A stretch of DNA of 64,000 bases from Salinispira sp. (GTDB lineage Bacteria > Spirochaetota > Spirochaetia > DSM-27196 > Salinispiraceae): positions 256,001 through 320,000 of the forward strand of contig CBDDDG010000010.1 of assembly GCA_965226555.1 (NCBI GenBank), given 5' to 3'. Shown piece after piece: positions 4,231 to 63,629 of the stretch. Both the position numbers and the translations under genes were made by a program. Below the pieces are notes generated by a model. The model was not told the origin of the DNA and ran no database searches. It saw only the letters and a program-made list of their open reading frames with translations. Numbering within the stretch: the stretch's first letter is position 1; every line of letters begins with the position of its first letter.

Positions 4231-5321
4231 TCGATATGCCCTGTGAAAATTTTGCTACTGAAAATTTTGCTCTGCAAAATTCTTTGTGAAAGTTCTGCAA
4301 AAATTTCTCATGCAATAATATAGGATTTTTGTAGGGAATGTAAATAGTTTTTTGTGCAGATGGTGGAATATAAACCTTTGGACAGCCCCCCTCCCGTCCA
4401 CTTATTCCGCATTCCCGAGCCCTCCCTCCCGTAGCCCCGAAAAAAATCACACATTATTCAAAATTCTCTCAAAAAACACAATTAAAAATGACAGTTTACC
4501 CGTCACAGATATAGAGGAGAGAATTCACCATGGGACCATGTCGCCATGGGAACTCCCCTATTCAGAAAGAAACGTTCAGGAGGATTGTATGATCGATTTC
4601 AAAGAAAAACCCGCCCCCGTTCCCTACGACCAAGGATACCGCTCCCTGCTGTTCCAACCCGCAATAATGCTCCAATTTCTTCAACGCTTTGTTGGAGGCG
4701 CGTGGACGAAAAAACTCCGCCGTGAAGATATAACCATCGAAAACGGCACATTTTTCATCGACCATGCGAAAACACGGATGGCCGACATTGTCTGCAAAAT
4801 AACGCAGAAGGATCACACGGGAGATGTTGTCATTTATGTGCTCCTTGAGCATCAGTCCGGCGTGGACAAAGACATGCCCCTTCGCATGTCGGAGTATACG
4901 AATCTGCTCTACCGGAACATTCACCGATCTGGAGCAATTCCCGATGACTGCGAGTTGGTATTTCTGCCCATTGTGTTCTATAATGGTACGAGAAAATGGA
5001 AGGTGCCAGGGAACGTCAGAGAGCAACGGAAGCGGGAATTCCCGCAGTATCTTGCTCCTTTTCCTTATGATCTGATAAGTGAGAGCGATTATTCTGCGGA
5101 GCAGCTACAGAGTCGGGGAAGAATGTTTGCGGCTGTTATGTACCTTGATCTGTACTCGAAAAATCTGCTGAATACGGATTGGGACATTCGGAAGGTGGAG
5201 AAAGCGATAGCAGAAATGCTGAATGAAGAATCGCTGGAGCTGATAGAGGAATTTATCGGCGTGGTAGATTCGATGTTTGGAATAGTTATAGACTTCGATA
5301 CGCTAATGAAACAATTAGAAG

Positions 5322-5447
5322 CAAAGTTTTGCCAGAGGCAAAACTTTCTATAAAATTGGAGAATGCTAAGCACAAAGAAAGCATTCCAAATTTGAAACTT
5401 TTGCTATTGGAAATTGTGCTTGCACAATTTTCCAATGCAAAAGTTTC
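5322..5447. mobile_element. Composite palindromic element (27-bp hairpin + ~45-bp spacer + 54-bp hairpin)
   Basis: Same structure at 28678, 32646, 47305 and 52422; flanked by AGAAG/AGAAA. Confidence 0.85.
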
Positions 5448-5487
5448 AGAAAGAACAAAAGAACCGAGAGGTAAGGAGGTAGCGAAA

Positions 5488-5832
5488 ATGTTCAGAATGA
5501 ATGCGGAAACATTCAGAGCGCGCATTGCGGAGATGGGTCGGCAGGAAGGCCTGCGAACAGGCCGTGAAGAAGGATTGCAAACAGGTCGGCAGGAAGGACT
5601 TCAGACAGGATTGCAAACAGGCCGTGAAGAAGGACTTCAGAAGGGGCTACAGACAGGTCGACAGGAAGGACTTCAAAAGGGGCTACAGGCAGGCCGCGCT
5701 GAGGGGCATATTGAGGAGCGGAGAAAAAACGCCCGTAGTATGTTTTTGGAAGGCTTGTCGACAGAGGCTGTTCAGAGGATTACCGGGCTGAGCGATGAGG
5801 AAATGCGGACATTGCGGAACGGATCGCATTAA
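5488..5832 (+). CDS. Small C-terminal Rpn protein from an internal start (RpnS-like)
   Basis: Strong SD TAAGGAGGT (5472-5480) before ATG 5488; open frame MFRMNAETF...LRNGSH. Confidence 0.7.
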   Translation: MFRMNAETFRARIAEMGRQEGLRTGREEGLQTGRQEGLQTGLQTGREEGLQKGLQTGRQEGLQKGLQAGRAEGHIEERRKNARSMFLEGLSTEAVQRITGLSDEEMRTLRNGSH

Positions 5833-5857
5833 GTTGGAACCGCTCGGCCTGCGCGCT

Positions 5858-6006
5858 AAAACTTTTGCATTGATAAAGTTTCGCCTGAGGCAATCCTCAT
5901 TGGAAAATTGTGCTTGCGCAATTTTCAGTAGCAAAAGTTTCTGGAAAAGTATTGTTGTGAATTGAAAAGACAACTCGGAAAAAAATTTGTATTTTGCAAA
6001 ATTTTC
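5858..6006. repeat. Degenerate palindromic-element copies upstream of topA
   Basis: AAAACTTTTGCATTG...GGAAAATTGTGCTTGCGCAATTTTCAGTAGCAAAAGTTTC plus a short arm at 5978-6006. Confidence 0.7.
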
Positions 6007-8702: not shown

Positions 8703-11700
8703 TTACTCGGGTAGTAAATATTTTTGTCTTATGACTCTTCTTTCACCACCAGAAATTTGCCATTCAACAGTGACATAATCACTTCCCCCGCCTTCCTTGT
8801 GAAGTACTTCAACGTAATACTTGGTACCGGCAACTAAGTTTTGGGTCACTGATTGCCGTTTGTTATCAGAGGCAATTTTTTGTTTGCTATCTGGAGAAGA
8901 ACCAAAATACAATTCAGCCTGATTATCAGCAGCAATCCAGAACGTATAGGTTCCTGTTACCTGTGGTGTAATATACCCATATATTCTTTGGCCGTAATCA
9001 TTTCTCCAATTTTTTGGAGCGACAAAATCATAAACCACACTGCGATAATCGGGATTATGAGGATAATTTGAATTATTCGTTAAATCGGCAATGCTGTTGC
9101 CGGTAATGTCAAGCCAGAGATCTCTTTTCAGTCCGCCGCCAACGGGGAAAGATACCTTACTCGCAGAAGGTAATCTACGGGTAGGATCCCCAACCTCAAG
9201 CATCGCCCTGAGAAGTGACCGAGGATCTTGTAGTGGAAGATCAAAACCCATTTCCCAGATCATGATTCCTCCCAGTTTTTCATTAATTGCCATATTTGTT
9301 TTTCTCTTGATCAGATCAATATTGTTAATTTTATAGCCATCTACAACATTTTGAGAAGAAGGCATATCAGGATAGTTTGTCCGAATAGTACGATATGAAG
9401 ATTCATATCCATCCCAGAAAGTATACCAGGCCTGTGGCGCTGACGCTGGAGCAACCCCATAGAAGCCAGTCCCAATGTTTAGTTGCTCACGCGCAAATCC
9501 TTTGTCAAGGAATGCATTCATCTCATCTACCGCATCACCATATGTATCATTACCCCATTCACCAAAACTATCCTGGCCCGAACTCTCGTATGCCATAATA
9601 TTCACATAATCAACGGCATTGACAACTGAGGCAGGCGCAGAATCTATTAGGGACAAACCACTAACTACAGCAATTGAGAGTTTTTTCCCATCCGCATTCA
9701 ATTCTGCTTTCAACTCGGTTAAATAGGTAACAAATGCAGGCCATTGACCGCTAGATGGCCATTCCCAATCGATATCAAGACCATAAAAACCGTTATTAAC
9801 AATAAACTCTACTATATTCCGGATATTTTTCGCCCGCTTTGTTGGATTACCTATGATATTGCCCAGTCCGCCGCCGCTGGGTGATGACCCCGCGCTGTAC
9901 CATAGCCGCGCGCTCTTTCCGGCGGCAGCTGTTTTAAAATTCTGCAGCCCATCTGGTTGAGAATCGGGTTCGAGTATATCAATATACGTATGAGCAAGAA
10001 GAATGACATCTGTCAGATAATCAAATATATTATCTTCAACGTAATATTGAGTATTATCCGTAGAATCATTATAATCAAAATCACGATACGGGGTATACCC
10101 GACAATTCGCAGCTTGGGATTGCCGACAGGTGTAGTTGCCGAAGCAGCTTCTGACCAATCACTCAGACCCGCAGCGTTCCGTGCGAGAATCCGCACATCA
10201 TACTTGGTGCTCTCATACAGTCCCGTAATGGTGTAGATCTTGTACGCGGCAATTGGAATTACAATAATAGGAGCAGCATTCATCCAGTTACTTTCCGAGA
10301 GCTTATACTGTAGTTGATACCCGGTAATGGGGGTGCCGCCATTGGCCGGCGCCGTCCATGTTGCGGTAATTTTCCCACTCCTCGCGACAAGACTGGGAGC
10401 AGCAGGCGCAGAAGGAGGACTGAATGTACTCTCCGAAACAGTTTGTGACCAATCACCCAGACCCAGACCGTTCAGTGCGCGCATCCGCACATCATACCTC
10501 GTGCTCTCACGCAGTCCCGTAATCTCGTAGGTGGCGGCAGCGCTCCCAATTACAATCGTATTCCCCCAGCTGCTTGTAGAGTTAGGCTTATACTGTAGAT
10601 GATACGAGCTAATGCGGCGGCCGCCATTGTTCGGCTCCGTCCATGTTACGGTAATTTTCCCACCCCCCGCGACAAGCATAGGAACAGGCGCAGAAGGAGG
10701 ACCGACTGGAGTTGCAACAGCAGGTGCTGACCACGAACTATTGCCCCCCTTATTTACGGCAAGCACTACTACACCGTAGGCAATGGTGTTTGTCAATCCG
10801 GTAATGGTGTGGCTTGTGCCGGTAATTCCCTCAATGCTCCCTATCAAGCTACTATCAGACGTATTATTTGAATCATAATATAACAATTCATACCCGGTAA
10901 TGGAGCCGCCGCCGTTCTCTTCCGGCGCCGTCCATGTTGCAATAATCTGCCTATCACCCGCGACAAGCGTGGGAGGAGCAGGCGCAGAAGGAGGTGCTGC
11001 AGGGGTTGCTGTGGCCGATGCGCCCCACGCGCCCACACCCATCGCATTCACAAAGCGCACCTGTACTTCATAGCTGTTGCCGTTTGTCAGTCCGGTAATT
11101 ATATGACTACATACTTCGTCGACCGTATCCTTGCATATGTTCGTGAATCCGGAGGTAATCTCCGTCCAGCTTCCGCTGCTGCCTTCGCGATAACGCAGGT
11201 GAGAGGCAGTGATCGCACTCTCGCCATCATCGCTTGAGATCCTCAACTGGAATATATGAACCACAAGTTCCGTGTTCCGTATTTCAATTGTCGGAGCAGC
11301 AGGCGCAGGAGGAGGTGCTGCGGGGGTTGCTGCGGCACTTTCCGACGGGGTGCTATTGCCCGTGACATTGACAGCGTACACCTGCACCTCGTACGCGGTA
11401 CCGTTTGTTAGGCCCGTAATGGTGTGGCTTGTCGCGGCAATGGAGGAAATGGTCGTTGTCGTATTCGAATCCAGCCAGCTTCCTGCCGGGCTGGTAACTT
11501 CGCGATACTGTAGTTCATAGGTAATAGGGCTGCCGCCGTCATCGGTCGGAGCCGTCCATGCTGCGGTAATCTGCGTATCTCCTGCTGTGAGCACAAGCGC
11601 GGTCGGCCGCATGGGAAGATTGCCAACAGGGGATGCTCCTGTACTCGGTTCCGACCATTCGCCCTTCCCCATCACGTTCACGGCGCGTGCGCGCACCTCG

Positions 11701-12688
11701 TACGCGGTGCTGTTTGTCAGGTCCGTGATGGTGTGGCTTGTCGCAGTACCTTCAACAATAATAGCGGGATCGTCCGCTTCAGGAATCCAGTTTTCTGCCG
11801 GGCTGGCAACTTCGCGATACTGTAGTTCATACCCGGTAATGGGGCTGCCGCCATTGTTCGGAGCAGTCCAGTGAACCGTGAGTTCCCCATTCCCCGGGAC
11901 AAGCCTGGGAGCAGCAGGCGCGACAGGAGGTGTTGCGGGGGTTGCTATGGCACTTTCCGACGGGGTACCACCGCCCGTGACATTGACAGCGTACACCTGC
12001 ACCTCGTACGCGGTACCGTTTGTCAGCCCCGTAATGGTGTGGCTTGTGTTTATGCCGATGCACGTCGGGGGAAATGGTCGTTGTCGTATTCGAATCCAGC
12101 CAGCTTCCTGCCGGGTCGGCAACTTCGCGATACTGTAGTTCATATCCGGTAATGGGGCTGCCTCCGTCATCGGCAGGCGCCGTCCATGCTGCGGTAATGT
12201 TCGTATCTCCTGCTGTGAGCACAAGCGCGGTCGGCTGCATGGGAAGATTGTCAACAGGGACTCCTCCTGTCGCTCGGTTCCGACCATTCGCCCTTCCCCA
12301 TCACGTTCACGGCGCGTGCGCGCACCTCGTACTCGGTGCTGTTTGTCATGCCCGTGATGGTGTGGCTTGTCGCAGTACTTTCAACAATAATAGCGGGATC
12401 GTCCGCTTCAGGAATCCAGTTTCCTGCCGGTCCGGCAACTTCGCGATACTGTAGTTCATATCCGGTAATGGGGCTGCCTCCGTCATCGGCAGGCGCCGTC
12501 CAGTGAACCGTGAGTTCCTCATCCCCCGGGACAAGCCTAGGAGCAGCCATTTCGCCCGGCGGGGTTGAGACCGCCACCGGCTCCGCCGCCGAATCGATAT
12601 CCAGTATTGGACATCCGGCAAGCAATGCAATAAAAATTGCGCTCAGTACAAGAATAATTGGTATAATATGGGATTTTTTGAAACACAT
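8703..12688 (-). pseudogene. Frameshifted copy of FN3-repeat / GH18 / PA14 lipoprotein (copy A)
   Basis: Near-identical to 13897-17898; frameshifts near 12270 and 12060; a 57-bp upstream deletion removes the GGAGG RBS; 14-aa in-frame deletion in the PA14 domain. Confidence 0.85.
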
Positions 12689-12839
12689 ACTGTAGGGTAA
12701 CAGAATGTGCTGGAGAATTGTGGGGTAATTTTTTCTGAAATGTGGTAATTTCTTAACCATTAAACAAAACTGCCGCGCATATTTATGAAGCGGTTCTGTC
12801 ATCCAGATTAATGTTGATTATTTCAGGTAAGTTGCCGTT

Positions 12840-13890
12840 TTACACAGTTTCCACAAACACGTACCATGTAAAACCGCGCGCTGCTATTGATACCGGTATA
12901 TCAATGCAGTAATTTCGGTCGAGAATATATTTCTCATATGTGCGTTCTTTCTCGGATACGTACACATTTTCGGAAAGTCCCGTATAGTAGAGAGGAATTT
13001 TTATACGTTCTTCCAATGTATGTGAAGATGGGTTATAGAATAGTGCTAATCCTCTATTGTATGGTATTTTGTAAGCGGACAAAATGTCCATAACATTGTT
13101 GGAGGTCTGTCCCATGTTCCATCGTATATATTCTGCCGCCCCAGTACTATCTGCCTGTTTCGCGGTAAGCTCCAATTTACCTCTCTGTACCCAACACCTG
13201 TCTGATTTGATCCGGATAGCATATATGAATCGGGAACACGTACATACACACCGCGGGAGCGAAGCCATGTGTAGAAAGCAATTATCGTTTGCCATTGTGT
13301 CCATATGGAATCGCCAAGTCCCTTATGACCAGGATGTTTTGTAGAGGCACATACATCAGCAGGATATGAACCATCATGAACGAATGTTTTTAGATCTAAT
13401 TCTTCAAAAATGGAATAAAGAGAATCAAAATACCTCTGTCCCCATTCTGATCCAAGGCACGGAGAATTTCCAAACCGGGGGGCACCCTTGATATGCAGTA
13501 CTGTCTCGTCTACTTCCTGAATTGCTTCAATGCCCTCTTCGAGAACCGGAGCGCTGATACTGCTGGTCTTACCGGTAAAAGGATTTACGACATCATGTTC
13601 ATCACTTATGCTTCTCGACGCCAGAAGAGAATATCCGCCATATTCTATTTTCTCATTGTCCAGCACATTACCGTATTGTTTCCTGAATTGTTTAAGCATT
13701 TCCATAAATTCTGCATTTGTCTGACTGCCCGTTCCACATCCTGTGCTTTGTTGGAAATGAGATGAAACATTAAAGGATTTTCAGTAACCCATGGGGCAAT
13801 GGTTCTGTACATTTGGGAGCGGGCCAAACCTCTCCGTTGCCTGTCGGTACTGGAATGAATGAGTTGATATTCACGAAATCCGGTAAGTTC
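12840..13890 (-). pseudogene. Decayed glycoside-hydrolase-like gene (alpha-galactosidase-like), fragmented
   Basis: Colinear pieces in different frames: RRGLARSQMYRTIAPWVTENP / GGYSLLASR..HDGSYP..GYREVNWSLPR..GRQNIYDGTW / GLALFYNP..IPLYYTGL; family assignment from recall only. Confidence 0.55.
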
Positions 13891-13896
13891 GGCACA

Positions 13897-16800
13897 TTAT
13901 GGTTCTAAATATTTTTGTCTTATGACCCCTCTTTCACCACCAGAAATTTGCCATGCAACAGCAACATGATCGCCTCCCCCGCCTGCCTTGTGAAGTACTT
14001 CAACATAATACCGAGTACCGGCAACTAAATTTTGGGTCACTGATTGCTGTGAGCTATATTTATCCCATTGATCTACATTAGTCCCTCCCGACTCGGGAAT
14101 GGAGGCAATTTTTTGTGTGCTATTTGGAGAAGAACCAAAATACAGTGCAGCCTGATTATCAGCAGCAATCCAGAACGTATAGGTTCCTGTTACCTGTGGT
14201 GTAATATACCCATATATTCTTTGGCCGTAATTATCTCTCCAATTTTTTGGAGCGACAAAATCATAAACCACACTGTGATAATCGGGATTATGAGGATAAT
14301 TTGAATTATTCGTTAAATTGGCAATGGTGTCGCCGGTAATGTTAAGCCAGATATCTCTTTTCAGTCCGCCGCCAACGGGGAAAGATACCTTACTCGCAGA
14401 AGGTAATGTACGGGTAGGCTCCGCAATCTCAACCATCGCCCTGAGAAGTGACCGAGGATCTTGTAGTGGAATATCAAAACCCATTTCCCAGATCATGAGT
14501 CCTCCCAGATTTTCATTAATTGCCAGATTTGTTTTTCTCTTGATCAGATCAATATTGTTAAAAGCATAGCCATCTGCAACATCTTGAGAAGAAGGCATAT
14601 CAGGATAGAGTGTCCGAATAGTACGATATGATCCTTCATATCCATCCCAGAAATTATACCAGCCGTGTGGCAATGACCCTTCATTGGTATGGCGTCCATA
14701 GAAGGCAACCGCAATGTTTATTTGCTCACGCGTAAATCCTTTGTTAAGGAATGCATTCATCTCATCTACCGCATCACTATAGGTAGCATGACCACCTCCG
14801 CCCCGCCTATCGTATGCCATAACATTCACATAATCAACGGCATTGACAACTGAGGCAGGCGCAGAACCTATATTCCCACTATATGAAGCAATTGAGAGTT
14901 TTTTCCCCTCCGCATGCAATGCTGCTTTCAACTCGGTCAAATAGGTATTAAATGCAGGCCATTGACCGCCAGAGGGGTATTCCCAATCGATATCAAGACC
15001 ATAAAAACCGTTATTAACAATAAACCCTACTACATTCCGGATGTTTTCCGCCCGCTTTGTTGGATTACCTATGATATTGCCCAGTCCGCCGCCGCTGGGT
15101 GATGACCCCGAGCAGTACCATAACCGCGCTCTCTTTCCGGCGGCAGCTGTTTTAAAATTCTGCAGCCCATCTGGTTGAGAATCGGGTGTGAGTATATCAA
15201 TATACGTATGAGCAAGAAGAATGGCATCTGTCAGATAATCAAATACATTATCTTCAATTAAATATTGAGTAATATCCGTAGAATCAGTATACGCAAAATC
15301 ACGATACGGGGTATACCCGACAATTCGCAGCTTGGGATTGCCATTGCCGAGGGGTGTAGTTGCCGAAGCAGCTTCTGACCAATCACTCAGACCCGCAGCG
15401 TTCCTTGCGAGAATCCGCACATCATACTTGGTGTCCCCATACAGTCCCGTAATGGTGTAGATGGGAAACCTGTGCGCGGGAATTTCAATAATAGGAGCAG
15501 CATTCATCCAGTTACTTTCCGAGAGCTTATACTGTAGATGATACAAGAAAATGGGGGTGCCGCCATTGGCCGGCGCCGTCCATGTTGCGGTAATTTCCCC
15601 ATTCCCCGCAACAAGACTGGGAGCAGCAGGCGCAGAAGGAGGACCGAATGTACTCTCCGAAACAGTTTGTGACCAATCACCCAGACCCAGACCGTTCCGT
15701 GCGCGCATCCGCACATCATACCTCGTGCTCTCACGCAGTCCCGTAATGTCGTAGGTGGCGGAGGCGCTCCCAATTACAATCGTATCTCCCCAGCTGCTTG
15801 TAGAGTTAGGCTTATACTGTAGATGATACGAGCTAATGCGGCGGCCGCCATTGTTCGGCTCCGTCCATGTTACGGTAATTTTCCCACCCCCCGCGACAAG
15901 CATAGGAACAGGCGCAGAAGGAGGACCGACTGGAGTTGCAACAGCAGGTGCTGACCACGGACTATTGCCCCCCTTATTTACGGCAAGCACTACTACACCG
16001 TAGGCAATGGTGTTTGTCAATCCGGTAATGGTGTGGCTTGTGCCGGTAATTCCCTCAATGCTCCCTATCAAGCTACTATCAGACGGATTATTTGAATCAT
16101 AATATAACAATTCATACCCGGTAATGGAGCCGCCGCCGTCCTCGGTCGGCGCCGTCCATGTTGCAATAATCTGCCTATCACCCGCGACAAGCGTGGGAGG
16201 AGCAGGCGCAGAAGGAGGTGCTGCAGGGGTTGCTGTGGCCGATGCGCCCCACGCGCCCACACCCATCGCATTCACAAAGCGCACCTGTACTTCATAGCTG
16301 TTGCCGTTTGTCAGTCCGGTAATTATATGACTACATACGTCGACCGTATCCTTGCATATGTTCGTGAAGCCGGAGGTAATCTCCGTCCAGCTTCCGCTGC
16401 TGCCCTCGCGATAACGCAGGTGAGAGGCAGTGATCGCACTCTCGCCATCATCGCTTGATATCCTCAACTGGAATATATGAACCACAAGTTCCGTGTCCCT
16501 TATTTCAATTGTCGGAGCAGCAGGCGCAGGAGGAGGTGCTGCGGGGGTTGCTGCGGCACTTTCCGACGGGGTGCTATTGCCCGTGACATTGACAGCGTAC
16601 ACCTGCACCTCGTACGCGGTACCGTTTGTTAGGCCCGTAATGGTGTGGCTTGTCGCGGCAATGGAGGAAATGGTCGTTGTCGTATTCGAATCCAGCCAGC
16701 TTCCTGCCGGGCTGGTAACTTCGCGATACTGTAGTTCATAGGTAATAGGGCTGCCGCCGTCATCGGTCGGAGCCGTCCATGCTGCGGTAATCTGCGTATC

Positions 16801-17898
16801 TCCTGCTGTGAGCACAAGCGCGGTCGGCCGCATGGGAAGATTGCCAACAGGGGATGCTCCTGTACTCGGTTCCGACCATTCGCCCTTCCCCATCACGTTC
16901 ACGGCGCGTGCGCGCACCTCGTACGCGGTGCTGTTTTTCAGGTCCGTGATGGTGTGGCTTGTCGCAGTACCTTCAACAATAATAGCGGGATCGTCCGCTT
17001 CAGGAATCCAGTTTCCTGCCGGTCCGGCAACTTCGCGATACTGTAGTTCATACCCGGTAATGGGGCTGCCGCCATTGTTCGGAGAAGTCCAGTGAACCGT
17101 GAGTTCCCCATTCCCCGGGACAAGCGTGGGAGCAGCAGGCGCTACAGGAGGTGTTGCGGGGGTTGCTATGGCACTTTCCGACGGGGTACCACCGCCCGTG
17201 ACATTGACAGCGTACACCTGCACCTCGTACGCGGTACCGTTTGTTAGGCCCGTAATGGTGTGGCTTGTCGCGGCAATGGAGGAAATGGTCGTTGTCGTAT
17301 TCGAATCCAGCCAGCTTCCTGCCGGGTCGGCAACTTCGCGATACTGTAGTTCATATCCGGTAATGGCGGGTCTGCCGTTCTCTTCCGGCGCCGTCCATGT
17401 TGCGATAATCTGCGTATCTCCTGCTGTGAGCACAAGCGCGGTCGGCCGCATGGGAAGATTGCCAACAGGGGCTCCTCCTTCGCTCGGTTCCGACCAGTCG
17501 CCCTTCCCCATCACGTTCACGGCGCGTGCGCGCACCTCGTACTCGGTGCTGTTTGTCATGCCCGTGATGGTGTGGCTTGTCGCAGTACTTTCAACAATAA
17601 TAGCGGGATCGTCCGCTTCAGGAATCCAGTTTTCTGCCGGTCCGGCAACTTCGCGATACTGTAGTTCATATCCGGTAATGGGGCTGCCTCCGTCATCGGC
17701 AGGCGCCGTCCAGTGAACCGTGAGTTCCTCATCCCCCGGGACAAGCCTAGGAGCAGCCATTTCGCCCGGCGGGGTTGAGACCGCCACCGGCTCCGCCGCC
17801 GAATCGATATCCAGTATTGGACATCCGGCAAGCAATGCAATAAAAATTGCACTCAGTACAAGAATAATTGGTATAATATGGGATTTTTTGAAACACAT
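13897..17898 (-). CDS. Surface lipoprotein: about 8 FN3 domains + GH18 chitinase-like domain + PA14 domain (copy B, intact)
   Basis: Lipobox LLAGC; repeated W..P..GGSPITGYELQYR...YEVRARAVN; GLDIDWE, VNVMAYD, GGLMIWE; PA14 YTFWIAADNQA; RBS GGAGG. Confidence 0.9.
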   Translation of the reverse strand: MCFKKSHIIPIILVLSAIFIALLAGCPILDIDSAAEPVAVSTPPGEMAAPRLVPGDEELTVHWTAPADDGGSPITGYELQYREVAGPAENWIPEADDPAIIVESTATSHTITGMTNSTEYEVRARAVNVMGKGDWSEPSEGGAPVGNLPMRPTALVLTAGDTQIIATWTAPEENGRPAITGYELQYREVADPAGSWLDSNTTTTISSIAATSHTITGLTNGTAYEVQVYAVNVTGGGTPSESAIATPATPPVAPAAPTLVPGNGELTVHWTSPNNGGSPITGYELQYREVAGPAGNWIPEADDPAIIVEGTATSHTITDLKNSTAYEVRARAVNVMGKGEWSEPSTGASPVGNLPMRPTALVLTAGDTQITAAWTAPTDDGGSPITYELQYREVTSPAGSWLDSNTTTTISSIAATSHTITGLTNGTAYEVQVYAVNVTGNSTPSESAAATPAAPPPAPAAPTIEIRDTELVVHIFQLRISSDDGESAITASHLRYREGSSGSWTEITSGFTNICKDTVDVCSHIITGLTNGNSYEVQVRFVNAMGVGAWGASATATPAAPPSAPAPPTLVAGDRQIIATWTAPTEDGGGSITGYELLYYDSNNPSDSSLIGSIEGITGTSHTITGLTNTIAYGVVVLAVNKGGNSPWSAPAVATPVGPPSAPVPMLVAGGGKITVTWTEPNNGGRRISSYHLQYKPNSTSSWGDTIVIGSASATYDITGLRESTRYDVRMRARNGLGLGDWSQTVSESTFGPPSAPAAPSLVAGNGEITATWTAPANGGTPIFLYHLQYKLSESNWMNAAPIIEIPAHRFPIYTITGLYGDTKYDVRILARNAAGLSDWSEAASATTPLGNGNPKLRIVGYTPYRDFAYTDSTDITQYLIEDNVFDYLTDAILLAHTYIDILTPDSQPDGLQNFKTAAAGKRARLWYCSGSSPSGGGLGNIIGNPTKRAENIRNVVGFIVNNGFYGLDIDWEYPSGGQWPAFNTYLTELKAALHAEGKKLSIASYSGNIGSAPASVVNAVDYVNVMAYDRRGGGGHATYSDAVDEMNAFLNKGFTREQINIAVAFYGRHTNEGSLPHGWYNFWDGYEGSYRTIRTLYPDMPSSQDVADGYAFNNIDLIKRKTNLAINENLGGLMIWEMGFDIPLQDPRSLLRAMVEIAEPTRTLPSASKVSFPVGGGLKRDIWLNITGDTIANLTNNSNYPHNPDYHSVVYDFVAPKNWRDNYGQRIYGYITPQVTGTYTFWIAADNQAALYFGSSPNSTQKIASIPESGGTNVDQWDKYSSQQSVTQNLVAGTRYYVEVLHKAGGGGDHVAVAWQISGGERGVIRQKYLEP

Positions 17899-23356: not shown

Positions 23357-23358
23357 TC

Positions 23359-45381: not shown

Positions 45382-45382
45382 C

Positions 45383-46946: not shown

Positions 46947-46980
46947 ATTATCCGCTCTGCGCGCAGGCAGAGCGGATAAT
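46947..46980. terminator. Hairpin directly after the Rpn stop
   Basis: ATTATCCGCTCTGC-N6-GCAGAGCGGATAAT perfect 14-bp inverted repeat. Confidence 0.6.
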
Positions 46981-48004: not shown

Positions 48005-48020
48005 ATAATTCCTCCTGAAC

Positions 48021-48074
48021 GAAAGTTTTGCTACTGGAAATTGTGCTTGCACAATTTTCCAATGCAAAAATTTC
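48021..48074. mobile_element. 54-bp palindromic element with TSD TGAAC
   Basis: TGAAC at 48016-48020 and 48075-48079; absent from the paralogous site at about 4570-4585. Confidence 0.92.
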
Positions 48075-48209
48075 TGAACGTTTCTTTCTGAATAGGGGAG
48101 CTCCCATGGCGACATGGTCCCATGGTGAATTCTCTCCTCTATATCTGTGACGGGTAAAAAGTCATTTTTGACTATGTTTTTTGAGAAAATTTGAAAAAAG
48201 TTTGCCTTT

Positions 48210-49320: not shown

Positions 49321-49402
49321 GTTTGCAAAATATTACTATTGCATGGATTCTTTGGGTATGATATTATCCAACAATCTCAATTGTATCGTGAGGAGTTATA
49401 TC

Positions 49403-51031
49403 ATGAACATCAAATTATACACGGGAATCCGCTTTCTATTCTGCGCGATGTGCATAGCATTAATTGCTGCATGTCCGATGCCGGAACCCGAGCCAATGCC
49501 GGAACCCGAGCCAACTGTGCCGGGTACAATAGGTGCCCCAGACCTTAAAGCGGGGAATGGGCAACTAACGGTTAACTGGACTGTGCCGAACAACGGCGGC
49601 AGCCCCATTATCGGGTATGCGCTGCAATATCGCACAGGCGAGGGAGAATGGACCGGAATTAGCTCCGGTTTCACCGGCACAAGCTACACCATTATGAACC
49701 TGACAAACGCCGCTGAGTACCACGTACAGGCTCGCGCCGTCAATGCAGTCGGCGCTGGGTCATGGTCGGAATCTGCCGTTGCAACTCTCCCTACCGCTGC
49801 AACTCCCCCTGCCACCATTCCTGACGCGCCGGCTGCTCCAACCCTATATGCGGGCACTGGGCGGCTTGTTGCGAGATGGTCTGAACCGGACGATAACGGC
49901 AGCGCCATTACCGGGTATGAGCTGATATATCGCGAAGTCGGCGTAACTACATGGACGGCTGCTTCCGGCATCACCGGAACAGACCACACCATTACCGGCC
50001 TGACAAACGGTGCTCTCTACCAAGTGCAGATGCGCGCCATCAACGCGGTTGGTACTGGACCCTGGTCTGCACCCGTAACGGAATCGCCGCTATTTTCTCC
50101 GACAGAGATTCCTTCAGGGGAGGAAGGGTCTATAAGCCTTTTGGCTGCCGATAATGCCATTGTTACTGCCAGTATTGCCAATGAGAACCTGAACATCAAC
50201 TTTTCTTTGACCACGGTAGAACCAGACCCTCTTTCGGTTACTGGAGGAGACCTTATGGTAACCCCCAATGGGGCGCCCACAGGAGTCACCATTCCGACAG
50301 TTAATGCGAGTACCGGAATTGTTACGGTTACCGCGAGTACAACAGCAGGAACATATCTGTTATATGGTGAAACAGAAAATGGCGACATACTCTTTGCCGA
50401 ATATTTCTATGTTACCGTGAGTCCACAAGATGGCGATGGTACTGGTGTTACTGCTAATGATGGTGATGGCGGTAACGATGAACTGAAAGCAGCGGTAGAT
50501 GCGGGAATAACTGCTTGGGGACAAACTGCCGATTTCAACTACATTATTACCACGGCAGTAACGGATATGTCTGAAATTTTCAATTCCAAAACCACATTTA
50601 ATGGCGATATCTCACTCTGGGATACTGCGGCGGTAACGAATATGAGCGGTATGTTTATTAGCGTAACAGTATTCAATGGCGATATCTCACTCTGGGACGT
50701 CAGTAAGGTAACGGATATGTCCTATATGTTCAATAATGCAAGCGTATTCAATGGCGATATCTCCGGCTGGGATGTCAGCTTGGTAACGAATATGTCCCAG
50801 GCTTTCCGGCAAGCAAGAGCATTTAATCGTGATATCTCAGCTTGGGAGCCTGCTGCGGTAACGAATATGAGCCGTATGTTTACTGACGCAGATGCATTCG
50901 ATCAGGATCTTGAGGAGTGGAAGGATCATTTGCCGCTCATTAATGCTAATGGCAAATACACCGGAACCAAAACAGATGTGTTTAAGAATTCCGGCGTGAC
51001 AGGTACTCTGGTGCCGTCATGGTATGAGTAG
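49403..51031 (+). CDS. Surface lipoprotein: 2 FN3 + DUF285 (BspA-like) repeats
   Basis: RBS GAGGAG; lipobox LIAAC; FN3 motifs; FNGDISLWD..VTNM..MF repeats. Confidence 0.9.
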   Translation: MNIKLYTGIRFLFCAMCIALIAACPMPEPEPMPEPEPTVPGTIGAPDLKAGNGQLTVNWTVPNNGGSPIIGYALQYRTGEGEWTGISSGFTGTSYTIMNLTNAAEYHVQARAVNAVGAGSWSESAVATLPTAATPPATIPDAPAAPTLYAGTGRLVARWSEPDDNGSAITGYELIYREVGVTTWTAASGITGTDHTITGLTNGALYQVQMRAINAVGTGPWSAPVTESPLFSPTEIPSGEEGSISLLAADNAIVTASIANENLNINFSLTTVEPDPLSVTGGDLMVTPNGAPTGVTIPTVNASTGIVTVTASTTAGTYLLYGETENGDILFAEYFYVTVSPQDGDGTGVTANDGDGGNDELKAAVDAGITAWGQTADFNYIITTAVTDMSEIFNSKTTFNGDISLWDTAAVTNMSGMFISVTVFNGDISLWDVSKVTDMSYMFNNASVFNGDISGWDVSLVTNMSQAFRQARAFNRDISAWEPAAVTNMSRMFTDADAFDQDLEEWKDHLPLINANGKYTGTKTDVFKNSGVTGTLVPSWYE

Positions 51032-51055
51032 TTTCATAGCCCGCAGCGGCCAGCC

Positions 51056-51220
51056 CTGCGCTCCACCTCCGGCAGGCGCGGGGGGCTGGTCGGAGGCGTG
51101 CGCCTCCGGGGCTGCTCGCCATGCGTCCGGCTCGCCCATGCGGCTGTTGCTGAGACTGGGCTGGTCGGCGTTGCACGCCTGCTCGCCATGCGGCTGTTGC
51201 TGAGACGGGGGCTGGTCGGA
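51056..51220. repeat. GC-rich dispersed/tandem repeat
   Basis: CTGCGCTCCACCTCCGGCAGGCGCGGGGG(G)CTGGTCGG also at 54606-54644 and partly at 53230-53248; internal duplication of CCATGCGGCTGTTGCTGAGAC. Confidence 0.75.
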
Positions 51221-51303
51221 GGCTCCGGCAGGGTTTTCGGCAGAATGTCTGCCAGTTGATTTCAGTACCGGAAAAGGCTATTATACATGAGAGGAGACAG
51301 ACA

Positions 51304-51930
51304 ATGCCAGAACTAACCGTACAAGAAATTAAAGACATGATGGCAGAAACGGCAAAGGCCCAAAAGGAGGCTCGAATTGAGGCTGAGCGTCGAGGGAGGG
51401 AAATTGACCTTCGAATGGAAAAGGACAGACAAGAGGCTAAGCGTCGAGGGAAGGAACTGGACCGCCGAATGAAGGAAACCGACCGCAGGCTAAAAAAGCT
51501 CGATGAACTCTTTACCTCCCAGTGGGGCAAGCTCATAGAGAGCCTCGTGGAGGGCGACTTGGTAAAGTTGCTCAAGATGAGAGGAATTACCGTAGACAAA
51601 ACTTTGGTTAGAAGAGAATATATAGAAGTTCCGGGAAAACCGCTTGCCGAGTTTGATCTTATTGCCTGCAACGGCAATGAAACGGTGGTAATTGAAGTTA
51701 AAACCACTCTCAGGGTAGAAGATGTGGATCATTTTCTCAAGAGCATGAAACTATTTCGAACAGCCATGCCCCGCTTTCAAAACGATATTATTTACGGGGG
51801 TGTTGCCTACATAAATGTTGTTGGATCGGCCGATAAATACGCTCAAAAAAAGAAGATCTTTGCCATTAAAGCCACGGGTTCCAGCGCCTCCATTATCAAC
51901 GCCGAAGACTTTGAACCGCAGACATTTTAA
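51304..51930 (+). CDS. Coiled-coil + PD-(D/E)XK restriction-endonuclease-like protein (DUF3782-like)
   Basis: RBS GAGGAG; KETDRR coil, WGKLIESLV, EFDLIA.NG..VVIEVKTTL. Confidence 0.75.
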   Translation: MPELTVQEIKDMMAETAKAQKEARIEAERRGREIDLRMEKDRQEAKRRGKELDRRMKETDRRLKKLDELFTSQWGKLIESLVEGDLVKLLKMRGITVDKTLVRREYIEVPGKPLAEFDLIACNGNETVVIEVKTTLRVEDVDHFLKSMKLFRTAMPRFQNDIIYGGVAYINVVGSADKYAQKKKIFAIKATGSSASIINAEDFEPQTF

Positions 51931-51936
51931 TTCATA

Positions 51937-51990
51937 GAAAGTTTTGCCTTGGAAAATTGTGCAAGCACAATTTCCAGTAGCAAAACTTTC
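51937..51990. mobile_element. 54-bp palindromic element, flanks not duplicated
   Basis: GAAAGTTTTGCCTTGGAAAATTGTGCAAGCACAATTTCCAGTAGCAAAACTTTC. Confidence 0.85.
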
Positions 51991-51992
51991 GT

Positions 51993-52757
51993 ATTGAGCA
52001 CAAAAGCGCGTATGATCCAAAGGTCAGCGAACAGTTCGATAAATACCAGAAAGCCCTCATAAACAGCAGGACATTTCAGGCGCAGACCGATCTTCTTGTT
52101 CTGGTGCTATGGTACCATGGCGAACTGATATGGGAAGGAGATCTCAGTTTCCACAGTTCAGGGGATGTGCATACACACATACCGGAAAAATTGTACACAA
52201 TGATGGAAAAATACCTTGCGAGGCCAAAGGTTCTCAATAGGCCTGTGATGCTCGATGTGAATAGGATGTGAGCGAGGAGGAGTTTACCCGGGGGTCAGAC
52301 GGGGTTATGTTGACAGGGGGAGCTCTGTGCTATATTATGCGGAAAGTCAGTAAGACAGGCGATGAAGACTTGAAACTGGATACACGCTTTGAAAAAATCA
52401 ACAGGGAAATAAATCCCGAAACAAAATTTTGCCTGAGGCAAAATTTTCTACAAAATGCGAGAATGCTAAGCACATAGAGTCATCCAAATGTGAAACTTTT
52501 GCTACTGGAAATTGTGCTCTGCACAATTTTCCAATGCAAAAGTTTCTGGAGGAGAAAGACGTATGATGAAAAAAGTTCAGATGAGCGATTGGTTTGTCAA
52601 CCAAGGCATGGAGAAAGGTCGCGCGGAGGGGCATATTGAGGAGCGGAGAAAAAACGCCCGCAGTATGTTTTCGGAAGGCTTGTCGACAGAGGCTGTTCAG
52701 AGGATTACCGGGCTGAGCGATGAGGAAATGCGGACAGTGCGGAACGGATCGCATTAA
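51993..52757 (+). pseudogene. Type-2 Rpn remnant lacking the N-terminus; small C-terminal ORF 52563-52757 intact
   Basis: Hand translation IEHKSAY..YQKAL..LWYHGE..W, 2-bp frameshift at about 52269, ALCYIMR..FEKINRE; colinear with 53350-54411. Confidence 0.8.
52422..52546. mobile_element. Composite palindromic element (125 bp)
   Basis: Same three-part structure as 5322-5447; removing it plus 5 bp restores the Rpn frame. Confidence 0.8.
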
Positions 52758-52776
52758 TTGGAGCCGCTCGGCCTAG

Positions 52777-53178
52777 GATGTCAGTACGGTAACGAATATG
52801 TCTGCTGGGAGCCTCTGGAAACTCGAAATTTTCATGATTCATTGCGTAAAACAACGTTGTTTTAAGCTCAATCATGCGGACACTGGTTAATTTTTCTGCC
52901 AGATATTAGGTTTCCAGAGGTTCCCTGCTATGTTTCAAAACGCAATCAAATTCAATAGCGATATCTCGGGCTGGGATGTCAGTTCGGTAACGACTATGAT
53001 CGCTATCTTCGCTTTCGCAAGCGCATTCAATCAGGATCTTGAGGAGTGGAAGGAACATTGGACGGCCGAAACCGGCAATAAGCTTACTACCGCTGATCCA
53101 TCCAAATATACCGGAACCACAACAAATATGTTTCAGGGTTCCGGCGTAACAACAACGCCGTCATGGTATGAGTATTAG
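52777..53178 (+). pseudogene. C-terminal fragment of a DUF285 lipoprotein, interrupted by a MITE
   Basis: After removing the insert: DVSTVTNMSAMFQNAIKFNSDISGWDVSSV...FNQDLEEWK...PSWYEY. Confidence 0.85.
52807..52925. mobile_element. 119-bp MITE, 16-bp TIRs, 4-bp TSD TGCT
   Basis: GGGAGCCTCTGGAAAC ... GTTTCCAGAGGTTCCC (15/16); TGCT at 52803-52806 and 52926-52929. Confidence 0.9.
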
Positions 53179-53349
53179 TTTCATAGCCCATAGCCCGCAG
53201 CGGCTAATGAAACGTTGCAATTCAACTCAGGCAGGCGCGGGGCTGGTCAAACAGTAATATCTCAAAATAATAGAAACTTTTTACAAAAATTTCTCATTTT
53301 GTCATTCATATCTCGTTTTTCTCCCGTCATAGATATAGCAGGAAAATGT

Positions 53350-54411
53350 ATGAAAAAATCATCCCAGAGCACAGGCCATATCCACGACATAGCCTTCAAG
53401 ATCGCCTACTACAGAACCCCCCGTATGATTCCCGACCTGCTACGGCTGTTCTGTGAGGATACGACTCTTGCCAAGCTGGACTTGGGCAAAATTCGTATTG
53501 AAAACCCCAGCTACATTGCAGGAAAAAAGAACCTTCACTGCGATCTCATTGTCAGCGCCCCCTTCTTGTCAGACCCCGACCGGAAGGCCCTATTCATTAT
53601 TGAACACAAAAGCTACCAGCATAAACATGCTCTCACACAGATCGATAATTATCAGTATGCCCTCAGAAACAGCAATGTGTACAATGAAAATGATGCTATC
53701 TATATACTGCTGCTCTACCATGGAAAAAATGAATGGAACCTCCCACTCACATTTTACAGTTCGCATGGAACTCCAGCTTCCGAATCCCTTACCGAAGGCA
53801 CGGTGGATGTCAGGGCGAGAGTGTCGTACATTGTGCGCGATCTGAGGCGAATGGACAAAAGGCAGTTGGCATTGCGTTTCGATGGAAAACGATATACATC
53901 GACTGCGTTGTGGTATATAATGCGAGATAATGAGATGGATGCTGAGGGGCTGAAAGAAATTGCGCAGCTCCTGAACGGTCTGTCATCACAAGACTTTACT
54001 GATCTGGCAGAGAGTGTGCTAGGGTACCTGAAAGATCTGGGACTGTATGGACAGTTTGAGAAAATTGACAGGGAACTATATTCTGAAGGAGAAAACAGTA
54101 TGCGGACATATAATATTACCAACGCCTTCGTCAGAGAAGGCATTGCGAAGGGCCGGATTGAGGGTCTTGAACAGGGAATGGAGAAAGGCATTCTGAAAGG
54201 CCGGGTTGAGGGTCTTGAGCAGGGTATCACAAAGGGCAGGGCTGAGGGCATTGAGAAAGGACTGCGAACAGGTCGCGCTGAGGGGCATATTGAGGAGCGG
54301 AGAAAAAACGCCCGCAGTATGTTTTTGGAAGGGTTGTCGACCGAGGCTGTTCAGAGGATTACCGGGCTGAGCGATGAGGAAATGCGGACATTGCGGAACG
54401 GATCGCATTAA
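53350..54411 (+). CDS. Rpn-family nuclease, type 2, apparently intact; probable internal start at 54100
   Basis: HDIAFK, CDLIVS, IIEHKS, LLLYHG..W, EG/KG repeats; internal AAGGAG 54086-54091 before an in-frame ATG. Confidence 0.88.
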   Translation: MKKSSQSTGHIHDIAFKIAYYRTPRMIPDLLRLFCEDTTLAKLDLGKIRIENPSYIAGKKNLHCDLIVSAPFLSDPDRKALFIIEHKSYQHKHALTQIDNYQYALRNSNVYNENDAIYILLLYHGKNEWNLPLTFYSSHGTPASESLTEGTVDVRARVSYIVRDLRRMDKRQLALRFDGKRYTSTALWYIMRDNEMDAEGLKEIAQLLNGLSSQDFTDLAESVLGYLKDLGLYGQFEKIDRELYSEGENSMRTYNITNAFVREGIAKGRIEGLEQGMEKGILKGRVEGLEQGITKGRAEGIEKGLRTGRAEGHIEERRKNARSMFLEGLSTEAVQRITGLSDEEMRTLRNGSH

Positions 54412-59862: not shown

Positions 59863-59916
59863 GAAAGTTTTGCATTGGAAAATTGTGCGCGCACAATTTT
59901 CCAATGCAAAACTTTG
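59863..59916. mobile_element. 54-bp palindromic element with TSD TGACT
   Basis: 52-bp perfect palindrome AAAGTTTTGCATTGGAAAATTGTGCGCGCACAATTTTCCAATGCAAAACTTT; TGACT at 59858-59862 and 59917-59921. Confidence 0.92.
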
Positions 59917-59999
59917 TGACTGTTTCTTATAGAAACCACACTATACGAAAATTTTATAAAATGCAAAAGTTTCAGGAGATTTATATGAGGAACATCTCA

Positions 60000-61586: not shown

Positions 61587-61596
61587 GATATTCCTA

Positions 61597-61748
61597 CAAA
61601 GTTTTGCATTGCAAAATTGTGCGCGCACAATTTCCAGCAGCAAAAGTTTCTATATTACTGTATCGGCATGTGTTACTATATAGTAACACTCTGAGAAACT
61701 TTTGCATTGCAAAATTGCGCGTGCGCAATTTCCAGCAGCAAAGGTGTC
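61597..61748. mobile_element. Two 54-bp palindromic elements between divergent genes
   Basis: 61597-61650 and 61695-61748 match the family consensus. Confidence 0.8.
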
Positions 61749-61768
61749 GGATCTGGTAATGGCGCGTT

Positions 61769-63565
61769 GTGAATAGAGATGAATTAAAAAACAGTGTGAA
61801 TGATTTTCCTCTTAGTCCGGGAATCTACCTCATGAAAGATAGATACGGACGAATTATTTATGTGGGCAAGGCAAAAAAACTCCGTAACCGCATTCGTTCA
61901 TATTTTTCTCCCGTTAAGGATAAGAAAACATCTCTGCTTATTGGGAAGATTGATACCATTGATGTTGTTGTTACCGACAACGAATATGAAGCGCTTATTC
62001 TCGAAAATAACCTTATAAAGGAACATTCGCCCCGCTATAATATCAACCTGAAAGACGGCAAAACCTACCCTGTTATCCGAATTACTGCCGATGAGTACCC
62101 CCGGGTTTTCCGCACCCGAAACATCATTAAAGACGGCTCCGATTATTTCGGCCCCTTTGTGAACCTCAAAGCAACCGATATGTACCTTGGTATTATTGAT
62201 ACGCTTTTTCCTCTGCGGAAATGCAGGGGACGGCTGAAAAAACGGGAACACCCCTGCCTTTACTACCACATCGGAAAATGCCCCGGGCCCTGCGCCGGGC
62301 TCATTACGCGCAAAAAATACCAGCGGCAGGTTACGCGCATCCGAAATTTCCTCAGTTCCTCACCTGAGAACATAAAGCAGAATATACGGAAGAGTATGGA
62401 GAAGTCCGCGAAAAAGCTCAATTTTGAACGGGCTTCGGAATTCCGCGACAGCCTGCTCGCCATTGAAGCCATGGAAAAAGATCAGCATGTAAATGACTTC
62501 GACAATGAGAAACGGGATTATACGGCATTTCATGAGCATGGAGGAATTATCAGCTTTGTGGTGTTTCAGATGCGGCAGGGAAAGTTGATCGGAACCGATA
62601 TTTTTCGCAGCCGGAATTTTGCGGATGATGGAGACGGTAGTCTTGAACAGTTCATTATGCGCTACTATGAAGATATACGAAAACCGCCCTCCGTTTTGTA
62701 TGTTCTCGCCGACACCGTAGACTTCGGGCTTCTTGAGCGGTTTTTCAGAAAACACCAAGGGGCTGCGGTGCGGGTGCGCGCTGCGGAATCGGACAGGGAT
62801 CGCCGCCTCCTGCGCATGGCAAAGGAGAATGCGCGGCACGATAGCGTTAAACGCGCCAGAGAAATAGGTGATGAAGAGGGTATTACCGAGCTGAAGAAGT
62901 TATTCAAGCTTCCCGGTCTTCCGCGGCGCATTGAGGGTTTTGACATTGCTCATATGCAGGGAAAGTACACGGTGGCAGCCCTCGTGAGCTTTTGGAATGG
63001 AATTCCCGATAAGAAAAATTATCGCTATTTTAATATGCGCAATACACAGAACAAAATTGACGACTATGAATCTATGCGGGAAGTCATAGCCAGAAGATAT
63101 ACCAAACTTTTGAATGAAAAAAAGACTCTGCCGGATCTCATTCTTCTTGATGGTGGAAAGGGTCAGCTTAGTGCCGCCTGCCGGATTCTTGAGGGCATAG
63201 GATTGAAGGGACTTCCCATTCTCAGTCTGGCAAAGCAGGAGGAAGAGATATTTCTCCCCGGACATGCGCAAGGGTTCATTCTGCCAGCAGGGAGTCCCGG
63301 ACTCCGTGTTCTTCAGGCGGTACGGGATGAAGCGCACCGCTTTGCGACCAGTCGGAGGGCAGCATCACAAAGCGGGGAAATTAGACTGCAGCAACTGGAA
63401 GCAATACAGGGAATAGGACCCAAACGTGCAAAAAGGCTCATGGAATTCAGCGGATCATTGGACACGCTTGCTGCCAGCGCAGTCTCCGAAATTGCGGAAG
63501 CATGCGGCATCAGCAAAGAACTTGCCCGGGCTGCCAGAGACAGTATCAGGAAAAATTTTCAGTAG
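61769..63565 (+). CDS. uvrC: Excinuclease ABC subunit C
   Basis: PGIYLM..IIYVGKAKKL, PRYNINLKD, RIEGFDIAH, DLILLDGGKGQ, RDEAHRFA, GIGPKR. Confidence 0.97.
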   Translation: MNRDELKNSVNDFPLSPGIYLMKDRYGRIIYVGKAKKLRNRIRSYFSPVKDKKTSLLIGKIDTIDVVVTDNEYEALILENNLIKEHSPRYNINLKDGKTYPVIRITADEYPRVFRTRNIIKDGSDYFGPFVNLKATDMYLGIIDTLFPLRKCRGRLKKREHPCLYYHIGKCPGPCAGLITRKKYQRQVTRIRNFLSSSPENIKQNIRKSMEKSAKKLNFERASEFRDSLLAIEAMEKDQHVNDFDNEKRDYTAFHEHGGIISFVVFQMRQGKLIGTDIFRSRNFADDGDGSLEQFIMRYYEDIRKPPSVLYVLADTVDFGLLERFFRKHQGAAVRVRAAESDRDRRLLRMAKENARHDSVKRAREIGDEEGITELKKLFKLPGLPRRIEGFDIAHMQGKYTVAALVSFWNGIPDKKNYRYFNMRNTQNKIDDYESMREVIARRYTKLLNEKKTLPDLILLDGGKGQLSAACRILEGIGLKGLPILSLAKQEEEIFLPGHAQGFILPAGSPGLRVLQAVRDEAHRFATSRRAASQSGEIRLQQLEAIQGIGPKRAKRLMEFSGSLDTLAASAVSEIAEACGISKELARAARDSIRKNFQ

Positions 63566-63629
63566 CAAAATTTTCTATAAAATGTTATATCCTGTAGAAA
63601 ACTCACTGATATGAAGGCATGGAGGTCTC

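Follow-up and report, generated by a model that had tools for sequence, protein, structure and literature searches.

Hairpin-bearing miniature elements with IS5-type ends in a Salinispira genome and the probable origin of their shortest forms

[quoted passage not shown] Their parents are the insertion sequences (ISs) ISPg1 and ISNme1 (IS1106), whose ends are similar to those described below (Table 2 and the accessible text of PMC4596501). Repetitive extragenic palindromic sequences (REPs) are, according to the available part of PMC3733652, located mostly downstream of genes, unlike the family studied here. In this work we analyzed a family of hairpin-bearing elements in a 64,000-bp stretch of DNA from Salinispira sp. 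(GenBank assembly GCA_965226555.1, contig CBDDDG010000010.1, positions 256,001–320,000), referred to below as the window, and in the assembly as a whole (G000; 2.98 Mb in 26 contigs, 93.5% complete), in which the window is C10:256001-320000. We consider it likely that these elements form a gene-less MITE family with IS5-type ends, probably moved by a resident 1340-bp IS5-family element, that a unit of about 126 bp is the main mobile form, and that the forms of 25–27 and 54 bp are stumps left by deletions. The elements look like genomic parasites. No description of this family was found in the literature, supplements and subscription papers being outside the search.

The hairpin family, its target duplications and a resident IS5 element

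When the window was scanned with at most one mismatch allowed, 62 end motifs were detected, compared with 7.5 in base-shuffled windows, and they fell into 25 clusters. A few of the clusters consist of one weak motif and may be chance matches, and roughly 18–20 are clear members, so the estimate of about 24 loci in the initial annotation of the window was a fair one. Genome-wide, we catalogued 695 hairpin units in 511 clusters, which occupy 34 kb, or 1.15% of the genome; merging of paralogous copies reduced the clusters to 388 distinct sites. The 511 loci are mostly 25–170 bp long and contain no transposase gene. The distances between paired ends peak at 25–28, 53–56 and 124–129 bp, with further peaks at 40–43 and 97–98 bp; the size classes of 25–27, 54 and 125–127 bp, first noticed in the window, are thus genuine throughout the genome.

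The MITE end is GAAACTTTTGCA, and the terminal inverted repeats are 11–12 bp long. The end motif originally proposed was found, but its outermost base is G at the long-hairpin end and G or C at the short-hairpin end. In the young type copy (32646–32772), a 27-bp hairpin is followed by a 45-bp spacer, which has a small stem of its own, and by a 55-bp hairpin; the 126-bp composite at 5322–5447 consists of a 27-bp hairpin, a 45-bp spacer and a 54-bp hairpin. Such a composite holds four copies of the 11–12-bp end, two per orientation, and a further end-like palindrome is located inside the long hairpin. The commonest spacer was counted 18 times among 73 variants, and an older subfamily is distinguished by a second type of spacer (B). 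As single-stranded DNA, the type copy folds into three hairpins (z = -8.3). In an Rfam search of window positions 28500–33100 we found no family match, only weak matches to eukaryotic microRNA hairpins far below the gathering scores. Contigs of sequencing run X1, which may be the source sample and is not counted as independent support, span window positions 30557–32675 and two elements of 25/27 bp on C14 with zero differing letters; since they cross the 25- and 27-bp copies unchanged, the tiny forms are not assembly artefacts. At multi-copy sites, hairpin loops and inner stems have opposite orientations in paralogues that are otherwise identical, which points to frequent flipping between the arms. 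It should also be mentioned that a 69-bp element with a 5-bp duplication (C11:75363-75431) contains a short stretch equal to the IS30 end at window position 48210.

An exact 5-bp direct repeat flanks 92 of the 511 clusters, while in 2000 shufflings of the right flanks such repeats averaged 3.7 and never exceeded 12; the observed number is conservative, as tandem neighbours were merged and degenerate units missed. Repeats of other lengths were observed (expected numbers in brackets) at 65 (56.8) clusters for 2 bp, 18 (15.1) for 3 bp, 5 (6.4) for 4 bp and 4 (0.4) for 6 bp, and at none for 7–10 bp. In the tabulation of duplication lengths suggested in the initial annotation, 5 bp is far above chance, and none of the other lengths shows a clear excess. 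The five repeats reported there are all exact: TATCA at 28678–28804, TTCAG at 32510–32534, TTAAT at 32646–32772, TGAAC at 48021–48074 and TGACT at 59863–59916. At 34 distinct sites an empty paralogue was available, and the net gain corresponded to the element plus 5 bp at 19 of them, to the element plus 4 bp at seven and to other values at eight. In a third IS-like element, the copy on C6 holds a 27-bp unit between two CAAGA, and the sister copy on C21 has a single CAAGA. Because empty and filled paralogous sites were compared, it can be stated that the 5-bp duplication is made on insertion. Both the duplications and the empty sites support the view, taken from the outset, of MITE-like elements integrated by a staggered cut and of a kind other than those associated with REP-associated tyrosine transposases (RAYTs). 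The consensus of 85 unique targets is C-TWNWA-G, in A+T-rich DNA.

Two-hairpin composites with a spacer at most two edits from the commonest one retain an exact duplication at 16 of 22 sites, those at six or more edits at 6 of 21. Thus, the family was rightly called recently active as far as one young subfamily is concerned, but many copies are old and eroded. Six pairs of hairpin units are spaced exactly 5 bp apart. Elements are often located one 5-bp target away from the end of another element, as at C14:99955-99961, C21:352435-352440, C10:181898-181971 and window 28804–28810; among such neighbours are a second IS5-family element (see below) and a MITE, the 1340-bp element and the second IS5-family element, and the 1340-bp element near a MITE. 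This suggests that insertion prefers sites beside existing ends, and the C and G just outside the target fit such a preference.

The initial annotation left the mobiliser unknown and proposed a search for a long element with the same ends around an open reading frame. A genome search for long segments with MITE ends and a 5-bp duplication revealed such an element, 1340 bp long and located outside the window. Its ends, GAAACCTTTGCA and GAAAC(C/T)TTTGAA, each match the closest variant of the MITE end at 11 of 12 positions, and a stray right end of this IS at C10:557052 matches a short-hairpin variant over 15 bases. Six complete copies, about 99% identical, contain an open frame, and an exact 5-bp duplication was found at 7 of 10 end pairs. 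The frame of about 337 residues (one copy at C18:62320-63333) contains DUF772 and DDE_Tnp_1 domains, and the protein scores 228 bits against the IS5 profile NF033581 (cut-off 140). In the translated transposase we read IDAS, YADAAY and R-x3-E-x6-K, which we take to be the IS5-type DDE transposase motifs. Scored with the matrix of MITE targets, the seven exactly duplicated targets of the 1340-bp element had a mean of 5.4, the MITE targets themselves 3.8 (in-sample), those of the second IS5-family element 1.6, and random genomic positions, not matched for intergenic composition, -4.0 (standard deviation 3.6). Judged by its matching ends and targets, the 1340-bp element likely mobilises the MITE in trans. 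According to the initial annotation, a known IS with the same inverted repeats would make the family an ordinary MITE; such an IS is the catalogued ISAba23, discussed below, which has the matching ends and the 5-bp duplication in common with the resident element.

Origin of the 25–27-bp and 54-bp forms

The smallest members had been regarded as mobile units in their own right. This is probably not the case, as our data favour collapse after insertion. The site of the window copy at 48021–48074 (exact TGAAC duplication) is occupied in 13 paralogues, by a 54-bp element in nine, a 126-bp element in three and a 153-bp element in one, and is empty in other paralogues. Further paralogous sites with several lengths hold elements of 125–126, 54–55 and 25 bp (seven copies), 126 and 54 bp (three), 27 and 54 bp (three) and 27 and 39 bp (three).

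The fifth base of the ends is informative as well. Within composites, it reads G/G in the short unit (27/37) and C/C in the long unit (27/37), while the two outer ends read C/G (30/37). Solo 27-mers with a duplication read C/G in 14 of 24 cases and G/G in three; solo 54-mers with a duplication read C/G in 12 of 21 and C/C in one (Fisher test for the end combination, p = 4e-8 and 3e-9, respectively; ends with A or T at the fifth base omitted). The solos thus mostly join the two outer ends of the composite, and this, together with the long and short forms at the same site, fits deletion in place. The 25-mer at 32510–32534 consists of the left end of the long hairpin and a damaged right end of the short hairpin, yet its TTCAG duplication is perfect; the repeat had been correctly described, but no stable hairpin is formed by this copy (z = +0.48).

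The following scheme can be proposed. The transposase would bind the two outer 12-bp ends of the composite and insert the composite by a 5-bp staggered cut. The four end copies, being two pairs of direct repeats, would then allow slippage or recombination between like-oriented ends, which would delete the middle; after deletion between two left-type or two right-type ends, the outer left and the outer right end would remain as a unit of 54 or 27 bp, still enclosed by the first duplication. The same repeat-driven exchanges might yield the expansions of 153–155, 168–169 and 225 bp and the flipped loops.

An alternative that seems unlikely is that the IS5 transposase moves the hairpins of 27 bp (and 54 bp) as such, as units made of ends only, and that the composite was built up from hairpins. 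Exact duplications were found at 27 distinct solo sites of 25–28 bp and at 22 of 53–56 bp (23 of 47 for family-A composites), and an identical 27-mer is present at five unrelated sites, each with a different duplication. The long hairpin can be read as one short end-like palindrome nested in another and flanked by CATTG and CAGTA, and the six unit pairs exactly 5 bp apart are in keeping with this possibility. However, the solos mostly show the outer-end combination of the composite and not the ends of its subunits, long and short forms share sites in paralogues, and the 25-bp forms have a perfect duplication despite one damaged end. Palindromes of 19–24 bp were flanked by a duplication in none of 61 cases under the strict pattern, with one duplicated 20-mer under a looser pattern. 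In addition, a DDE synaptic complex needs two ends looped together, of which 27 bp of duplex is hardly capable. In principle, a chimeric stump could also be amplified by transposition.

A more specific version, to which we also assign a low probability, holds that the 27-bp hairpin, with its two ends three bases apart, is moved by IS5, perhaps in an extruded state, that the larger forms arose by nested or adjacent insertion, and that bases replaced at the insertion site were carried over from the donor. If true, the 27-bp mobile unit would be far under the lower MITE size of 50–70 bp given in the accessible literature, and the replaced bases would preserve a fossil trace of the way in which the ends are excised in this IS5 group. 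A search for minimal transposon size returned no directly relevant paper.

This version concerns a peculiar feature of the older copies. We compared 19 sites with a net gain of 5 bp and an empty paralogue, using for each the one representative with the fewest mismatches or flank differences and omitting one site with divergent flanks. Both copies of the duplication were exact at six sites and at least one copy at 11. Counted outward from the element, mismatches to the empty-site target numbered 13, 14, 3, 3 and 1 of 38, with 34 of 950 in the flanks. Thus, in older copies the two innermost duplicated bases were replaced about ten times more often than the flanking DNA, and the boundary of this zone is sharp. 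The replacement may be due to donor bases that were retained, to microhomology-driven loss of an outer end or to junction bases that escaped gene conversion. Several eroded flanks read AG or AGTA, which is internal sequence of the long hairpin. As for the carry-over of donor bases, inspection of the empty-site rows by eye gave no clear fit of the replaced bases to the target consensus.

Several observations weigh against collapse of a composite moved by the 1340-bp element. An exact duplication is kept at only a minority of distinct sites (81/388), and in the spacer-B subfamily at none of 16, several of which had incomplete ends in the clustering. Only 12 of the 27 solos of 25–28 bp and 4 of the 22 of 53–56 bp are exact prefix-plus-suffix products of an extant composite, and nine of these 16 also equal some composite subunit; most 54-mers match neither product nor subunit and carry private changes, so that this exact test discriminated poorly. 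Gene conversion between element copies could be the source of the length changes in paralogues. At C14:2579, a contig of a related strain (run X5, about 95% identical) crosses a 27-mer without a large gap and shows no longer ancestor; this strain appears to have the same 27-mer, which is neutral for collapse. The part played by the 1340-bp element is something we infer, and the MITE interior has no BLAST homology to the interior of this IS, hence the MITE is not its simple deletion product. Finally, a second resident IS5-family element, with ends GAGATCATTGCA and GAGACCATTGCA, has a 5-bp duplication in all five of its copies and could contribute to mobilisation. The family is present in contigs of related strains (two further studies) that cover window positions 22000–36000 and C14:1500-6000, but at the tiny elements these contigs showed neither a clean empty allele nor a longer one.

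Other candidate mobilisers

The second IS5-family element is unlikely to be the chief mobiliser or a further one, for instance for the older subfamily. It has the same TTGCA core, and one of its copies, on C14, directly adjoins a MITE, with the duplicated 5-mer common to both. On the other hand, its ends match those of the MITE at about 8 of 12 positions, compared with 11 of 12 for the 1340-bp element, its targets fit the MITE matrix less well (the means given above are based on small numbers), and three of its copies are interrupted by a MITE. These copies (C10:480604, C10:540013 and C26:9488) carry the same MITE insertion within the transposase gene, each MITE end being one base short and the duplication eroded; since the insertion is the same in all three, copying of this IS must have followed its interruption. 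Unrelated ends were found in the remaining IS families examined (IS982-like, a long DDE element, an rve element, IS30 and a third IS5-like element), as had been correctly noted for the IS30 of the window. A nest of elements is located at C6:2470-5834, where an IS982-like element lies inside the 1340-bp IS, itself inside the third IS5-like element that carries the 27-bp stump.

It is very improbable that the hairpins are repeats of the REP type, or akin to bacterial interspersed mosaic elements (BIMEs) or to the PATEs of Haloquadratum, mobilised by an HUH (Y1) enzyme and leaving no duplication of the target. The modular build of hairpin, spacer and hairpin does resemble a BIME, and the older copies lack a clean duplication. 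For the young subfamily, however, this is largely refuted by the strong 5-bp duplication signal and the empty sites. There was no Y1_Tnp, TnpB or IS110 match in the 93.5% complete assembly; the Y1 (RAYT) profile PF01797 gave 0 matches there, while 6 of 14 genomes gave a positive control. At its base the hairpin has no GTAG or CGTC tag, the ends being GAAA or CAAA and GTAG occurring only inside one arm of the long hairpin, and the elements are under-represented in gaps between convergent genes (29/380, compared with 10.8% by length).

The weakest proposal, made in the initial annotation and given hardly any credence here, is mobilisation by Rpn (YhgA-like) nucleases: these are strongly expanded (141 loci, 145 kb) and house 64 of the 511 clusters, with 63 more within 300 bp, but the Rpn-linked copies are few insertions multiplied with their paralogues (up to 15 copies per site), only 37 of the 141 loci have an insert and 104 have none, the co-occurrence check proposed at the outset gave Rpn matches in 15 of 30 relatives and the MITE in none, RpnA is described in the accessible text of PMC5350276 as a non-specific endonuclease, and an IS with matching ends is resident in the genome. 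As the copies trace to few insertions and most loci are without an insert, the Rpn genes are targets and not a likely vehicle. Rpn (PF04754) had at most six Pfam matches in any of the 30 relatives.

Members in the window, genomic setting and comparison with known systems

The young 127-bp copies of the window are the type copy on the plus strand (32646–32772) and that on the minus strand at 28678–28804, behind which a 74-bp derivative (28810–28883) follows at a distance of 5 bp (TATCA). The 155-bp form reported earlier is present on the plus strand at 32809–32963, upstream of a chaperonin gene; it is made up of a spacer and two long hairpins and lacks an exact duplication. An older 125-bp composite (52422–52546, plus strand) has the eroded flanks CGAAA/TGGAG, compared with CGAAG at the empty site. 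A 54-bp form with exact TGACT (59863–59916) occupies a single-copy site upstream of the PheRS genes, while the 54-bp hairpin at 51937–51990 and the 25-bp stump at 46751–46775 are without an exact duplication. Two 54-bp hairpins, 44 bp apart and with an unrelated spacer, lie between divergent genes at 61597–61748. An 84-bp rearranged derivative (5858–5941) was found upstream of the topoisomerase I gene, and the right end motif of a further copy (63557–63582) behind uvrC. The relaxed motif scan added degenerate members: tandem end motifs at 23322–23355, a short hairpin at 30667–30693 and 27-bp hairpins at 32554–32580 and 59947–59973. A degenerate derivative at 27017–27045 lies in the stretch 26608–27093, which in related strains of runs X4/X5 lacks 16 bases.

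The Rpn loci of the window are at 4352–5832, 46980–48223 and 50982–54411. A degenerate hairpin cluster (4245–4307) lies upstream of an Rpn gene, and the 126-bp composite at 5322–5447 (plus strand; flanks AGAAG/AGAAA, empty paralogues AGAAA) is located where an Rpn-family frame breaks; the same site is occupied in 10 paralogues, among them the 126-bp composite on the minus strand at 47305–47430. Several Rpn genes are split by a MITE, whose spacer offers an AGGAG-ATG restart. Internal antitoxins have been reported for Rpn proteins in the accessible part of PMC10400941. The AGGAG-ATG of the spacer opens a frame of at most 31 codons in 34 of 50 cases. Frames of 132–248 codons that run from the spacer ATG into neighbouring sequence were found at C21:98072, C10:25916, C1:195473, C10:401941 and C10:480058; they may be due to chance or be fusions to downstream genes.

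We also analyzed the location of 380 sites relative to 2165 genes (crude gene calls). Divergent genes flank 124 of the sites (23% expected by length), and convergent genes 29 (11% expected). The start codon in the spacer has the direction of the neighbouring genes 18 times and the opposite direction 14 times. Shine-Dalgarno-like words occur within 25 bp of 154 of 388 sites, compared with 26–29% of random intergenic positions, a modest excess that may reflect only the divergent, A+T-rich location. A domesticated promoter role is not supported: the composite contains TTTGCA-17-TAAAAT, but there were two matches, compared with 2.2 in shuffles. Given the divergent, promoter-side gaps, local effects on expression are possible.

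Besides the MITEs, the window contains expanded fibronectin type III repeat proteins (8703–17898, 27092–30744 and 49226–51031), of which two contain GH18 and PA14 domains and form a near-tandem duplication at a distance of about 5.2 kb, and two contain DUF285. A Schlafen/AlbA_2-HATPase gene, a gene for a ParA-like ATPase, a RhuM-family gene and a 262-bp duplication at 43142–46307 possibly constitute a small defence island.

The distribution of the family outside this genome was studied in several collections. The 127-bp element had no match in 30 related genomes, none of them of the same genus, and the 1340-bp element transposase had only distant matches (23–32%) in two of these. A scan of a genome collection for the transposase revealed 54 loci with 27–50% identity, the recovered ends of which belong to another IS5 type with 4-bp duplications; at the closest match (L023) the end search found no ends. 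A metagenome pattern scan for the family gave 0 matches, and a plasmid search with the 127-bp query likewise turned up no such MITE. A literature search for target data on ISAba23 and for the mechanism of IS1106 returned nothing relevant.

The family is notable for its completeness, as a single genome holds a probable parent IS with open transposase frames, the same sites both empty and filled, and forms that range from 225 to 25 bp. It illustrates that an IS5 MITE can give rise to short REP-like palindromes between genes in the absence of any RAYT, and it serves as a warning that the size of a tiny element found between target duplications is not necessarily the size at which it moved. The short forms are natural substrates for asking what is the smallest unit that an IS5 transposase can move.

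Among the best plasmid matches of the 1340-bp element transposase is ISAba23, with 46% protein identity over 94%. This IS5-family element of Acinetobacter plasmids resembles the 1340-bp IS in its left 13 bases, which are identical, and in a 5-bp duplication, and differs from the MITE in being a full IS. Its copy in L022 starts with GAAACCTTTGCAC, has the complement of GAGACCTTTGCAC as its other end and is flanked by duplicated TAATA; for a second copy (L021) the end search did not recover the ends.

REPs and BIMEs associated with RAYTs, as presented in the available part of PMC3733652, are likewise hairpins of 20–50 bp that occur in hundreds and form modular arrays between genes. The family described here differs from them in its 5-bp duplication and its enrichment in divergent gaps, and we found neither a RAYT in the genome nor a GTAG/CGTC tag on the elements. 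The terminal-only PATEs of Haloquadratum (accessible text of PMC3119063) similarly lost their core through deletion mediated by repeats, leaving a stub of ends of about 52 bp, but are derived from IS605-type elements and have neither terminal inverted repeats nor a target duplication.

The closest counterparts are BrickBuilt, MITEPgRS and ATR, which, as far as PMC4596501 describes them in its accessible text, are also non-coding and intergenic, have 12-bp ends that differ by no more than one or two bases from those of a resident IS5-family element and an interior unrelated to the transposase. The right end of ISPg1, TTCAAAGGTCTC, is one base away from the end of the probable parent IS found here (TTCAAAGGTTTC). 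The Salinispira family differs from the three in having about 500 loci compared with 10–20, in an interior made up of further end copies that form hairpins and not of a minisatellite, and in its collapse to 25–27-bp stumps that keep the duplication, which is constantly 5 bp here and variable in BrickBuilt. Thus, it is most likely a new family of a known kind, the IS5-family MITE, with core deletion to end-only stubs known also from the Haloquadratum PATEs, and it stands out by its unusually high copy number and its well-documented collapse series.

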